Assembly (NCBI GenBank): GCA_963770315.1
Contig: CAVYPC010000002.1
Location: 2,227,168 to 2,291,167, forward strand
DNA length: 64,000 bases
Source of the DNA: an uncultured Solirubrobacterales bacterium
GTDB taxonomy: Bacteria; Actinomycetota; Thermoleophilia; Solirubrobacterales; 70-9
Direction of reading: 5' to 3'
Position 1 is the first letter of the stretch. Each line of letters begins with the position of its first letter. Made by a program: the position numbers and the translations under genes. Positions 4,592 to 34,178 of the stretch are shown here, one piece after another. The notes under the pieces were generated by a model. It did no database searches, was not told the DNA's origin, and saw only the letters and a list, made by a program, of their open reading frames with translations.

Positions 4592-4712
4592 GGGGTGGGC
4601 AGGGGGTGTCCGCGCGTTGCTGGGTTTTTCGCCAGGCTAGCCCGCCGCTCTCGCTGAGTTGGTGGGGCGAAAAGGGGACGCCGCTGCCGCGTGGACACCC
4701 CCTACCCACCCC
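4592..4712 (+). repeat. palindromic intergenic element, copy 1 (about 121 nt)
   Basis: Outer arms GGGGTGGGCAGGGGGTGTCCGCGCG and CGCGTGGACACCCCCTACCCACCCC are complementary apart from 2 positions. Core GCTGGGTTTTTCGCC...CTCTCGCTGAG...GGGGCGAAAAGGGGACGCCGC is shared with copies 2-4. Confidence 0.85.
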
Positions 4713-4748
4713 AGTCAGCCGTGAACGCCGCTACCTTGCTTTGTTCTC

Positions 4749-5999
4749 GTGTTGCTACTTGGGATGAGACGAGCTTCGATTCTCCTCGCCGCTGTTGTCG
4801 TCTTGGCGCTGCTGCCGAGCGCTGCTCTGGCGACGAGCAAAAGCTGCCAGCAGATGCGGGAACGGCTGGTCTATGGGGGCGGGACGGCGAGTGGGCTTTA
4901 CGTCGTCGACGCGGCGAGCGGTAAGGCGGTTTGCGCGCGGGCGGCCAAGCGGCCGCGATCGCTGGCTTCGAACACGAAGCTGTTCACGACGTCGACCGCC
5001 CTCTCCCGCTTCGGCCCCGACTACCGGATCGCGACGAGGCTGCTCTCGGACGGGAAGATCGGCTTCGACGGCACCCTCCATGGCAGCCTCTACCTGCAGG
5101 GCGCCGGCGACCCCGCGCTTGGGGTGCCCTCCTTCTACGACCGCTACGTCGGCCTCGGCACCAACCTGCTCGAACTGGCGGCCCAGCTCCATGCCGACGG
5201 GGTCCGCGCCGTCACCGGGCGGCTCTACGCCGACGACAGCGTCTTCGACCGCCTGCGCGGGGTCGCCGACTCGGGCTATGCGACCAGCCCCTACATCGGC
5301 CCCCTCTCGGGCCTCTCCTTCGACTCCGGCTACCGCGGCTCGATCGCCGAAGGCTTCGCCTCGGACCCGGCGACGCTGGCCGGCACCAAACTGGCCACCG
5401 CGCTGCGAGCCTCCGGCATCGCGATCCGCACGCAGGTCGCCCGCGCCGCCACCCCGGCCGGGGCCGAGACGCTGGCCACGGTGCGCTCGCCGACGATGTC
5501 GCAGCTGGTCGAAGCCACCGACGTCTACTCCAACAACTTCTTCGCCGAGATGCTCGTCAAGCTGCTCGGCGCCAACTTCGGCGGCGGCGGCACGACCGCC
5601 GCCGGTACCGGGGTGGTCGAGCGATTCGCCCGCGGCCACGGCTCGGGGATCCACGCCGTCGACGGCTCCGGCCTGACCCGCGGCAACCGCGCCTCCCCGG
5701 CGCAGGTGGTTGGGCTATTGCAGGCGATGCACCAGGAACCCGTCGGCGACGAATTCATCCAGGACCTGGCGCTAGCCGGTCACGAAGGGACCGTCGCCGA
5801 CCGCATGCACGGCACCGCCGCCTATGGCCGCTGCCGCACCAAGACCGGCACCCTGACCGGCGTCAGCGCCCTCTCCGGCTACTGCTTCAACCGCAGCGGC
5901 AGGACGATGATCTTCTCGATCCTGATGGGCAGCGTCAGCGACCTCTCCTTAGCTCACTATGAGCAAGACAAGATCGCCGCCGCGGTCGCCTCTTACTGA
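4749..5999 (+). CDS. dacB: D-alanyl-D-alanine carboxypeptidase/endopeptidase (PBP4, peptidase S13)
   Basis: 416 aa. Signal peptide. SxxK (SNTK), SxN (YSNNF) and KTG (KTGTL) motifs in the correct order. Confidence 0.85.
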
Positions 6000-32645: not shown

Positions 32646-33951
32646 ATCGCTTTCTCTCGTGGCGGATCTCTCGTATGTACGGGTGGAAGTCAACCTCGAT
32701 CGTGTGACGCTTGGAGCTTACGAAGCGCTTTTTTAGCCAGCGTTCGTAATCGACGATCTCCTCGCGCATCTCGGGTGCCGTGGGTAGAGCTGCCTTATCC
32801 GTGAGCAGGTCGGCTACCCATTCGGACTGGGCCTCAGCCAGCGGCATGATTGGGCCCAGGGGCTGGATGAAGCCGATGAAGTAGAGGCCGGGGTTCTCCG
32901 TGGAGACGACCCGTTTGTATAGCGGCATGCGGTTGTCGCGGGCGGCGAAGACCTTCTCGTCGAGGAAGGGGAATGAGATTTCGTAGCCGGTGCAGTAGAC
33001 GACCAGGTCGATCTCCTCCTCGCTGCCGTCGGCGAAGCGCACGGTGCGGTCGCCGGTAAAGCGGTCGATGCTTGGCTTGGCCGCGATATCGCCGTGGCCG
33101 AGTCGCGGCAGCAGCTCCGAAGAGACGGTGGGATGGGCCTCGAACAGCTTGTGGTCGGGCCTGGGAAGGCCGTAATCGGTCATCTCGCCGATCGACATCT
33201 TCAGCAGTCGCGAAGCGAAGAAACGCTGCACGGTCATCGGCAGGTAGCTCAGCGCCGGCGGCATCGATTCGTCGATCGGCTTGCCACCGAGGAACTTCGG
33301 CAGCACGTAGGCGCCGCGCCGCATCGCGAGGAAGGTCTTCTCGGCGATTCGCGACGCCTCGACCGCGACGTCGACGGCGGAGTTGCCGATTCCCAATACC
33401 AGCACCCGCTTGCCCTCCAGCACGTCGGACTCGCGGTAGTGGTGGACGTGCATCTGCTCGCCCTCGTACTCGTCGGCACCCGGGAAGGGCGGTTCGGGCC
33501 AGCGCGGCTTCCAGTGATGCCCGTTTGCCACCAGGACCGCGCGGTAGCGCTCGGTATGCTGGGTGCCGTCGGCGTCCTCGACGGTCACATCCCAGCCGCC
33601 ATCGACAGGCTCAGCGGCGGCGACCTCGGTACGGAAGACGATCTTCTCGGCGAGGCCGAAGCGCTCGGCATAGTCGTCGAAGTATTTGGCGACCTGGTAG
33701 TGGCTGGGGTAGTCCGGATAGTCCTCCGGCATTGGAAAAGCCTTGTAGGACATGAGCTTGCGGGCACTGTTGATGTGCAGCGACCGATAAGCCGACGAAG
33801 TCCCGTTGTCGTTCTCATAGCGCCAGTTCCCACCGATCATCGACCCCTTCTCGAAGCAGTCGAAAGGGATGCCGCGAGCGGCCAAGACCTGGCAAGCGGT
33901 CAGCCCCGACGAACCAGCTCCTATGATGCAGACCTTCTCCACCTTGGCCAC
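32629..33951 (-). CDS. flavin-containing monooxygenase (class B, FMO/BVMO-like)
   Basis: 440 aa. FAD site IIGAGSSGL, an FMO-type motif around GEQMHVHHY, and NADPH site VLGIGNSAVD. Confidence 0.85.
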   Translation of the reverse strand: MAKVEKVCIIGAGSSGLTACQVLAARGIPFDCFEKGSMIGGNWRYENDNGTSSAYRSLHINSARKLMSYKAFPMPEDYPDYPSHYQVAKYFDDYAERFGLAEKIVFRTEVAAAEPVDGGWDVTVEDADGTQHTERYRAVLVANGHHWKPRWPEPPFPGADEYEGEQMHVHHYRESDVLEGKRVLVLGIGNSAVDVAVEASRIAEKTFLAMRRGAYVLPKFLGGKPIDESMPPALSYLPMTVQRFFASRLLKMSIGEMTDYGLPRPDHKLFEAHPTVSSELLPRLGHGDIAAKPSIDRFTGDRTVRFADGSEEEIDLVVYCTGYEISFPFLDEKVFAARDNRMPLYKRVVSTENPGLYFIGFIQPLGPIMPLAEAQSEWVADLLTDKAALPTAPEMREEIVDYERWLKKRFVSSKRHTIEVDFHPYIREIRHERKRSRQAA

Positions 33952-34071
33952 CCAGCCAATCTATCCAAGAGCCCTGCCGCCCGCGATTGCAGCTTTGTCC
34001 CCACCATAGGGTGGAAAAAGCTGCAATCGAGGTGGGTCGAGGCAAGGCAGCTAAGCGAAGGGCAGATGGGT

Positions 34072-34178
34072 GAGGGGGGCGCGGGTGCCCCTTCGTCGGA
34101 ACTTGTGAGCCGCGGGACCTCTATCCCATCGGCAGGTGTGGGCGCGGGTTCCGCCGAAGGGGCACCCGCGCCCCCTCC
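34072..34178. repeat. palindromic intergenic element, copy 5 (variant core, about 107 nt)
   Basis: GAGGGGGGCGCGGGTGCCCCTTCG and CGAAGGGGCACCCGCGCCCCCTCC form the outer stem (21 nt perfectly complementary). There is an inner CGGAAC/GTTCCG stem, and the apical sequence differs from copies 1-4. It abuts the rpoC stop codon. Confidence 0.75.

Follow-up and report, generated by a model that had tools for sequence, protein, structure and literature searches.

Five long palindromic elements (c1 to c5) lie between the genes of the window, that is, the whole stretch of 64,000 nucleotides (nt) analysed here, which belongs to the genome of an uncultured Solirubrobacterales bacterium (contig CAVYPC010000002.1, positions 2,227,168 to 2,291,167). 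Four of them (c1 to c4) are copies of one repeat family, designated F1, while the fifth (c5) belongs to a different family, F4. The gene contexts reported for all five copies in a preliminary description of the window were confirmed with Pfam and are included in the following list.

4584..4720, plus strand: c1, F1 subfamily A; arms 4584-4616 and 4688-4720, core 4619-4684; between a patatin gene (minus) and an S13 peptidase gene (plus), divergent.
8843..8972, plus strand: c2, F1 subfamily A, partly degenerate; core 8875-8938; between surE (minus) and truA (plus), divergent.
9872..10001, minus strand: c3, F1 subfamily A; arms 9879-9902 and 9973-9996, core 9906-9970; between truA (plus) and rplQ (minus), convergent, 10 nt after the rplQ stop codon.
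32501..32633, plus strand: c4, F1 subfamily B (five Ts and five As); arms 32501-32532 and 32600-32631, core 32533-32598; between a small membrane open reading frame (ORF, plus) and an FMO gene (minus), convergent, ending 2 nt from the FMO stop codon.
34056..34194, strand unassigned: c5, F4 and not F1; long hairpin with F1-like arms (GGGTGCCCC...) and the core TCGGAAC-TTGTGAGC...; between rpoC (minus) and the FMO gene (minus), co-directional, starting directly after the rpoC stop codon and upstream of FMO.

The preliminary description had united all five copies in a single family. With regard to position and core blocks this holds for c1 to c4, but not for c5. The F1 core consists of three conserved blocks, B1 (GCTGGG-T(3-5)-CGCC), B2 (CTCTCGYYGAG) and B3 (GCGAAAA(A)-[CG]AGGACGCCGC), and of two variable segments, arranged in the order B1, V1, B2, V2, B3; the consensus of the 3' block is GCGA5-CAGGACGCCGC. 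A pattern reaching from B1 to B2 (GCTGGGTTT(0-2)CGCC-N10-20-CTCTCG) matched the window four times (0.00 expected), and a profile hidden Markov model (HMM) of the F1 core detected exactly four copies, c1 to c4, with scores of 48.0, 36.8, 39.4 and 60.8 bits, respectively. With all filters switched off, the covariance model gave 63 to 122 bits for these copies (99.8 for c1, 63 for c2 with many positions unpaired, 91.5 for c3 and 121.6 for c4). No match to c5 was obtained with the core HMM. The covariance model pairs only the outer stem of c5, on both strands alike (32.6 and 30.2 bits), and skips the whole core, and c5 is therefore placed outside F1. Its core motif, TCGGAAC-TTGTGAGC, was found again in other loci and defines the separate family F4. 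A weak match of the covariance model (20.6 bits, E 0.013) in the ribosomal-protein region (19344-19420) coincides with a GC-rich palindrome, GGAGGTGGGCTCCTCG...CGAGGAGTCCTCC, and is probably a resemblance of the stem only.

Four of the five longest inverted repeats of the window are arms of the copies: I1 (c5), I2 (c4, 32 nt, near-perfect with 91% complementarity), I3 (c1, 33 nt, 85%) and I5 (c3, 24 nt, 92%). The T-run of c1 comprises five Ts, compared to four Ts and four As in most members of subfamily A, and in c2 the T-run and A-run are damaged (TTT opposite GGGCAAAAAA). Both strands of the copies fold far better than shuffled sequence, with predicted energies of -61 to -96 kcal/mol on either strand (c1, -84.9 kcal/mol, z -5.9; c4, -96 kcal/mol, z -8.1). 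The exception is c2, with z values of -2.6 (plus strand) and -3.3 (minus strand).

Outside the window, F1 was found in a large number of related genomes. In a scan of contigs from one genome per GTDB species with the pattern B1-N10-20-B2, at least 115 loci were matched, so that the preliminary description's expectation of further copies was borne out many times over. Each matched record is a metagenome-assembled genome (MAG) of Solirubrobacterales or unclassified Actinomycetota, and several are closed chromosomes of 2.5-2.9 Mb. Stretches of 8 kb around the matches (L001 to L115, 0.96 Mb in total) were used for the comparisons described below; proteins of the window are 80-100% identical to proteins encoded in these loci, which places the window in the same lineage. 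Together with the window, the 115 loci yielded 127 distinct canonical copies. The core HMM found 150 matches in the 0.96 Mb, 129 of which also fit the exact pattern and approximately 31 of which are additional to the one selected copy per locus. Extrapolation, as opposed to a count, would give about 90 copies per 2.5-Mb genome, or about 150 if the density in the window is taken as the basis; for genomes of 2.5-3 Mb the estimate thus ranges from tens to about 150 copies. As B1 and B2 belong to the search pattern, ascertainment contributes to their invariance; of the three blocks, only B3 is unaffected by this bias. The pattern was not matched in the viral contigs of IMG/VR. With Rfam 15 at the gathering threshold, the only match in the window was a tRNA and none fell on the elements; at E-values up to 5, the elements received chance matches to microRNA models (24-26 bits, compared to gathering scores of 59-74). 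A full-text search of the literature returned no description of Solirubrobacterales repeats. Both results agree with the earlier statement that the elements are not a named family, and the comparison with Rfam leaves their novelty intact. Of the window copies, c2 has orthologues in L003, L083, L066, L034 and L065, and c4 in L035 and L057.

F1 copies are 120-135 bp long with a core of 63-68 nt, mostly 66 nt. V1 comprises 13 nt in 88 copies and 14 nt in 34, and V2 comprises 8 nt in 116 copies. Each copy can fold into one long hairpin, which is built, from the outside inward, of an outer stem of approximately 26-30 bp (median 26 bp ungapped), a GC/GC clamp, an asymmetric internal loop (GCUGGG versus CAGGACGCC), a stem of 8-9 bp (T5CGC/GCGA5) and an apical region of approximately 37 nt. 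The outer arms pair right up to the core, where mutual information links the two positions flanking it on each side. Conservation in the apical region is limited to CTCTCGYYGAG and the lengths of the spacers; the CTC/GAG closure is constant, and no consistent pairing of V1 with V2 was detected by mutual information. The inner helix T5CGC/GCGA5 is nearly invariant. Its variants (TTTT/AAAA in 10 copies, TTCCT/AGGAA and TTTCT/AGAAA) are compensatory and corroborate the inner stem TTTTTCGC/GCGAAAAA proposed from the window. Two subfamilies are distinguished, A with typically four Ts and four As (...GGGGCGAAAAG-AGGAC) and B with five Ts and five As (...GTGCGAAAAACAGGAC).

The arms are homologous across copies, yet only about 52% identical between random copies. 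Outward from the core, they contain a mostly-C run at positions 9-11 (58-84% C) and GGG at positions 15-17 (89-100% G per position), followed by a G-rich outer part. The complementarity of the two arms within each copy, noticed first in the window, was found in c1 to c4 and across the 127 unique copies from approximately 100 genomes, with a median pairing score of 23 for a copy's own two arms versus 5 for left and right arms taken from different copies. Covariation was tested on a MAFFT alignment that had not been fitted to any structure, using 500 shuffles and cell-based statistics. In the outer helix, 84.8% of the cells are paired versus 72.5% in the shuffles, and 745 cells are doubly changed versus 292 in the shuffles, none of the 500 shuffles reaching the observed number. 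Registers slid by one to three columns are paired to only 52-57%, and changes on both sides occur in 23 of the 24 outer-helix pairs. The arm differences are thus compensatory, as shown by covariation as well as by the comparison of own with swapped arms. Selection for structure, to which this pattern had been ascribed, is the simplest reading, but gene conversion from arm to arm within a palindrome would give the same pattern. Since many further copies exist and the arm differences are compensatory, the interpretation as structured elements is retained. A G-quadruplex in the G-rich arm is not a general property of the family (four G3 runs in just 31 of the 127 copies). The constant position of the G-rich arm 5' of the core could be taken to mean that the arms are linked to core orientation. 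This argument was dropped as vacuous, because in any palindrome whose left arm is rich in G the 5' arm is G-rich whichever strand is read.

F1 is not restricted to spacers. Seventeen of the 127 copies (approximately 13%) lie in an open frame that is coding-like on both sides, and Pfam domains flank the insert on both sides in an MMPL transporter, a Wzy_C protein resembling O-antigen ligases, the Lhr helicase, a helicase-nuclease of the UvrD/PD-(D/E)XK type and an ABC-F ATPase. The G+C content at third codon positions (GC3) falls from 0.8-0.9 in the flanks to 0.6-0.68 within the insert. The peptide shared by translations of the elements had been regarded as spurious. It is indeed read from c1 and c3 (QRRPLFAP..QRE) and, in a variant form, from c4 (QRRPVFRP..ARE); given the copies in coding-like frames of genes confirmed by Pfam, it is, however, sometimes part of a real reading frame. 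In the window itself, c4 provides the 3' end of the ORF at 32304-32645 (plus strand), as had been proposed. The hydrophobic, membrane-like N-terminus of this ORF (58 amino acids, aa) is conserved in five related loci, and in the window, L035 and L057 the frame reads through F1, from which approximately 45 C-terminal residues and the stop codon are derived.

One in-frame insertion lies in an MMPL transporter gene, where the same canonical F1 copy is present in at least six species (L019, L054, L064, L097, L107, L115), as in the following example.

L107:372-2960, minus strand: MMPL gene with F1 between the two halves, at aa ~435-478.

The inserted peptide reads ...RAGFFAGR..SLAE..GRKTGRRA.... 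Within this group, the core blocks are identical across species and the arms 80-100% identical, while identity at the four-fold degenerate sites of codons beside the insert is only about 50%, close to saturation. The divergence of V1 and V2 is approximately neutral, and the rare codons in B1 (GCT, GGG, TTT) are retained inside the gene. Because the blocks are identical despite near-saturated neighbouring sites, the core nucleotides are being preserved in situ, through selection or through concerted evolution of the approximately 100 copies.

A second protein, the helicase Lhr, carries its insert between motifs II (DEIH) and III (SAT). Lhr orthologues range from those with no insert (P0056, P0093, P0120; DNA loci L118 and L119) to those with 60-70 extra residues, and the loop between the two motifs is a hot spot for palindromic inserts (alignment A3, columns 222-294).

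L082:1364-6007, minus strand: F1 directly in the gene.
L116:2090-2240: F1 centred within an older, outer palindrome, GGGTCCTGTCAC...GTGCCACCCGC.
L117:2100-2200: another palindrome of 63 nt at the same centre as F1 in L116.
L118:850-880 and L119:855-890: empty sites.

A flank motif of the outer palindrome of L116 is present in eight other loci. With regard to a possible insertion of the core alone into a resident hairpin, the centre of L117 holds a different inner palindrome and not the L116 arms minus the core. Neither a palindrome nor a common target motif was found in the empty sites of L118 and L119. A second variable region of Lhr, near aa 400, coincides with two-gene or 'partial' calls in many MAGs, even on long contigs.

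Comparison of orthologous positions shows an evolutionary turnover of copies through gain, loss, replacement, nesting and partial duplication. The site of c1 is occupied in four species (the window, L024, L025 and L065) and unoccupied in three (L003, L033 and L004). The truA-rplQ spacer is occupied by subfamily A in three genomes, by subfamily B in L083, L034, L033 and L004, and by another family, F7, in L003. In the spacer after rpoC, F4 is present in the window, L035 and L057, and F1 in L086. The Wzy_C loop carries F1 in opposite orientations in L029 and L076. Rearranged copies were found at four further places.

L087, approximately 6300-6500, minus strand: full F1 nested inside the apical region of another F1.
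L020, approximately 1440-1640, minus strand: tandem duplication of the left half of F1.
L035:3403-3560: solo right half of F1 beside an F4 copy.
L069:7168-7260: interrupted F1 copy, with the break after the second variable segment.

Two copies in L053, 1 kb apart, have identical cores and inner arms and different outer arms, each pair of which is self-complementary; this suggests an ectopic conversion tract. Target-site duplications are not apparent, since flanking 2-mers are identical in only 6 of 121 copies and 3-mers in 3 of 121, which is about the chance level. No conserved flank motif was detected either; TCTCG on the right flank occurs in just 15 of 122 copies, mostly orthologues.

With regard to neighbouring genes, for which our own crude GC3-based calls were used in the loci, the element (E) was found in the arrangements >E> (46), <E< (29), >E< (21) and <E> (10). 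Copies often start 0-20 nt past a stop codon, in either orientation, and in co-directional pairs the end of the element is often just 13-33 nt before the next start codon. The orientation of the copies showed no significant bias relative to the majority coding strand or the GC skew. In the window, -10-like boxes on the minus strand, TAGAAT (8832-8846) and GATAAT (4556-4570), abut the F1 arms of c2 and c1 and are located 9-11 nt upstream of the start codons of surE and patatin. Their position suggests leaderless or short-leader transcripts of both genes, in which case F1 would occupy the -35 region and the sequence upstream of it. A sigma-70 promoter scan of positions 1-20000 gave no matches.

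Several observations bear on whether F1 acts as RNA or as DNA. Genuine structured RNAs accept G-U pairs much more readily than A-C pairs. Among the broken arm pairs of F1, 86 are of the G-U type and 65 of the A-C type in element orientation, while on the transcribed strand in co-directional contexts the numbers are 39 and 46. Of the arm pairs broken by a transition in the 127 copies, 115 have the A or T in the 3' (C-rich) arm and 36 in the 5' arm, an excess that RNA wobble on the transcribed strand does not explain. Core HMM medians are equal for sense and antisense copies (58.9 and 62.1). No U-tract follows the hairpin, as there is no T-run behind either arm in c1 to c4, and the only terminator-like match inside an element is a 7-bp sub-hairpin in c3. 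A model of two facing half-element terminators (arm hairpin plus T5) was rejected; in plus orientation it reached -13.4 kcal/mol versus -10.9 kcal/mol with shuffled arms, and in minus orientation there was no effect. Altogether, a strand-symmetric form such as folded single-stranded DNA or a cruciform is favoured. With strand-symmetric data, no U-tract and copies both between divergent promoters and in reading frames, a terminator or an RNA gene is unlikely to be the primary identity of F1, so that of the explanations offered in the preliminary description the bidirectional terminator and the small RNA are disfavoured.

Taken together, F1 is probably a lineage-specific family of non-autonomous palindromic interspersed repeats of uncultured soil Solirubrobacterales, and among the previously listed options 'REP/MITE-like elements' is the favoured one. 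F1 lands in any context, including in-frame sites of genes, and the scatter of its copies between genes and in frame within genes places it in the class of small selfish palindromes and not with RNA genes or terminators. Its spread would be brought about by a copy-and-insert process mediated in trans by a putative enzyme. Insertion would leave no target-site duplication, and the folded single strand would probably be the form recognised, because pairing is kept and arm sequence is not, irrespective of the direction of transcription. Ectopic conversion between copies would take place in addition. Insertions would survive where they are tolerated, namely at gene ends, in spacers, in surface loops of proteins and at the centres of older palindromes, and effects on transcripts (a stable 3' hairpin or a substrate of RNase III) would be secondary. 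Some results weigh against this interpretation. In the 0.96 Mb, no autonomous parent or mobilising enzyme was seen, no element halves flank an ORF, and no genome showed two near-identical copies at unlinked sites as proof of recent transposition; L004/L011 and the linked pair of L053 come nearest to this. Furthermore, the in-place conservation of the core exceeds that expected of a decaying selfish insert and points to a host-level function of its nucleotides or to strong concerted evolution.

Such a function is assumed if F1 is taken as a domesticated chromosomal site, in which the three core blocks on duplex or cruciform DNA bind a host protein, for instance a nucleoid protein, a topoisomerase or a repair factor, and the copies would be retained through selection on the host, irrespective of their orientation and context. 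A similar protein-binding role has been proposed for the REP/BIME elements of E. coli. For F1 this explanation is considered unlikely, even though it accounts for the conservation of core nucleotides beside near-saturated four-fold sites, including the rare codons kept in coding sequence, as well as for the independence of this conservation from the direction of transcription, for spacers fixed in length (13-14 and 8 nt) and variable in sequence, and for the strand-symmetric pattern of broken pairs. However, a binding site has no need to sit inside the frames of helicases or transporters and would not be swapped at the same position for families with unrelated cores. The element is often missing from orthologous sites, a candidate protein is not known, and no polarity relative to replication proxies was observed; moreover, concerted evolution through ectopic conversion could mimic purifying selection.

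A role at the transcript level, as bidirectional terminator, attenuator, stabiliser of mRNA 3' ends or RNase III site, is doubtful. Roles of this kind have been reported for REP, ERIC and Correia elements. In F1, they would fit the many copies located 0-20 nt past stop codons in either orientation, the position of c3, c4 and c5 at operon ends after rplQ and rpoC, and the very stable folds predicted for both strands (-61 to -96 kcal/mol). At a given gene end, one hairpin family may stand in for another, and one of these families, F7, has a canonical terminator as its core; RNA effects of related elements have also been reviewed (PMC10969869). On the other hand, no U-tract is present behind the stem of F1, whose T5 run is internal and paired with the A5 run, and the half-element terminator model is weak in plus and unsupported in minus orientation. 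In co-directional pairs, transcription must read through the element, since often no more than 13-33 nt separate it from the following start codon. Copies c1 and c2 and their orthologues lie between divergent promoters, reading frames contain 17 of the copies, G-U-type broken pairs are no commoner than A-C-type ones on the transcribed strand, and the conserved core would be left unexplained.

That F1 represents multi-copy genes of a structured small RNA, or cis-regulatory RNAs, is highly improbable: a covarying long stem around a conserved core with variable segments of 13-14 nt and 8 nt could be taken as a scaffold with a variable loop, and the family is absent from Rfam, but the element lacks any associated promoter-like or terminator signal, copies are equally conserved in both orientations relative to neighbouring genes, some lie inside coding sequence, A-C-type broken pairs are as frequent as G-U-type ones, unlike in genuine structured RNAs, and the approximately neutral divergence of the variable segments between orthologues is unlike that of conserved guides.

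F1 is accompanied in the same genomes by at least six further families of long-hairpin elements of 80-150 nt, including F4 and the following.

L001:1206-1318 and L080:1107-1221: F2, with a T5CGG/CCGA5 inner stem.
L001:5715-5864: F3.
L057:3649-3772: F5.
L030:6293-6399: F6.
L003:7212-7302 and L073:4950-5048: F7, whose core is a bidirectional terminator (A-tract, hairpin, T-tract) inside long arms.

F1 is one of several families with a common build, in which long arms that are G-rich and then C-rich surround a family-specific core, and some of the further families have the arm style of F1 (GGGTGCCCCTCC). A bolder view, which must be regarded as speculative and rather improbable, would unite F1, F2, F4, F6, F7 and others in a new superfamily, whose build and propagation would differ from those of REPIN and MITEs. 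In this superfamily, the core on its hairpin and not the termini would be recognised, insertion at palindrome centres would be favoured, and copies would be kept under nucleotide constraint through a putative dedicated enzyme or host factor acting on single-stranded DNA. Interchangeable cores on similar arms, nesting at palindrome centres (L116, L117, L087) and core invariance in coding sequence would follow from it.

Two further features of the window were recorded. Between c5 and the start of the FMO-like gene, a separate hairpin (33976-34039) has arms of 12-20 bp (GATTGCAGCTTT / AAAGCTGCAATC) and an inner CCCACC/GGGTGG hairpin, and is more A+T-rich than its surroundings. At 26559-31776, rpsL and rpsG (Pfam) are encoded on the plus strand, with ORFs of 703 and 394 aa just upstream on the minus strand. 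The sizes of these ORFs are typical of EF-G and EF-Tu; if they do encode these factors, the usual str operon would be split and inverted here.

Long-hairpin repeats of several families are thus scattered over the genomes of the abundant, uncultured soil Solirubrobacterales. Gene prediction is either interrupted by such elements or runs on through them: Lhr is often split into two calls, the ORF at 32304 acquires a tail, and spurious 'conserved peptides' arise. A model of F1 is useful for annotation, for quality control of MAG assemblies and for strain typing.

Among the known systems, the Rickettsia palindromic elements (RPE) are closest to F1 in behaviour. They are palindromes of roughly 100-150 bp, of which one genome has several families. 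Besides intergenic copies there are repeated in-frame insertions into unrelated protein-coding genes, whose products thereby gain a peptide segment (PMC10969869). In-frame palindromes were likewise found in the MMPL, Wzy_C, Lhr, UvrD/PD-(D/E)XK and ABC-F genes described above, and insert-free Lhr orthologues exist; no mobilising enzyme is known for either RPE or F1. RPE occur in AT-rich Alphaproteobacteria and F1 in high-GC Actinomycetota, the two being compared by description only. We know of no sequence relationship between them, and judging from G+C content and phylum homology would be unlikely. In contrast to RPE, only approximately 13% of the F1 copies and not the majority are intragenic, and the F1 arms are hypervariable but covarying around an invariant core. 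The presence of in-frame palindromic DNA in helicases and transporters, known from RPE, is hereby extended to a high-GC actinobacterial lineage.

ERIC elements resemble F1 most in size, independence of orientation and central conservation. In ERIC, too, the central part and not the termini is most conserved. These elements of Enterobacteria (also IRU) are imperfect palindromes of about 127 bp. Their copies number tens to hundreds, take either orientation and lie mostly between genes, occasionally within them (PMC10969869). They differ from F1 in being gammaproteobacterial and unrelated in sequence, and the F1 arms are far more variable between copies. Effects of ERIC at the mRNA level (RNase E) are documented.

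REP and REPIN elements, which are mobilised by RAYT (Y1 HUH) transposases and include the GTAG- and CGTC-tagged superfamilies, are closest in their GC-rich stems, compensatory changes, lack of target-site duplication and copies in helicase or repair genes. They are GC-rich palindromes near stop codons with compensatory stems, they insert without target-site duplication, and their active form is probably a folded single strand of DNA; intragenic REPs are often located in DNA-repair and helicase genes (PMC3733652). A REP unit, however, comprises 20-40 bp compared to 120-135 bp for F1, and ends in a conserved unpaired GTAG or CGTC tag (PMC3733652), while F1 has no terminal tag according to base profiles and k-mer enrichment outside the arms. 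Those 11 of the 122 copies that have TAGGG show it overlapping with stop codons or -10 boxes, and GACG is internal to the core and not terminal. REPIN have conserved arms and a variable spacer, which is reversed in F1. The F1 arm motif GGGGTGYCC occurs six times in the window, five times in F1 arms, and was not found as free single units.

With MITEs (e.g. Correia elements), F1 shares its short, non-coding, multi-copy and non-autonomous nature, its boundary by inverted repeats, variation in presence or absence and fusion to ORFs (PMC10969869). In F1, by contrast, target-site duplications are absent, and the long inverted arms share a pattern of base composition but not their sequence; no parental IS with F1 ends turned up, although no search was aimed at one. 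The attC sites of integrons have outer R''/R' boxes (RYYYAAC / GTTRRRY) and a variable centre, which is the opposite of F1, and R-box sequences are absent from the F1 alignment. Rho-independent terminators consist of a GC-rich hairpin directly followed by a U-tract, an arrangement not present in F1. Since F1 differs in these respects from REP, MITEs and terminators and matches nothing in Rfam, it is regarded as a new family within a known class. Its invariant core and covarying arms make the copying of such elements testable by comparative genomics over many MAGs. What is unusual in F1 is the combination of an invariant core with arms that are free to vary but covary, and the occurrence of several core families on similar arms.

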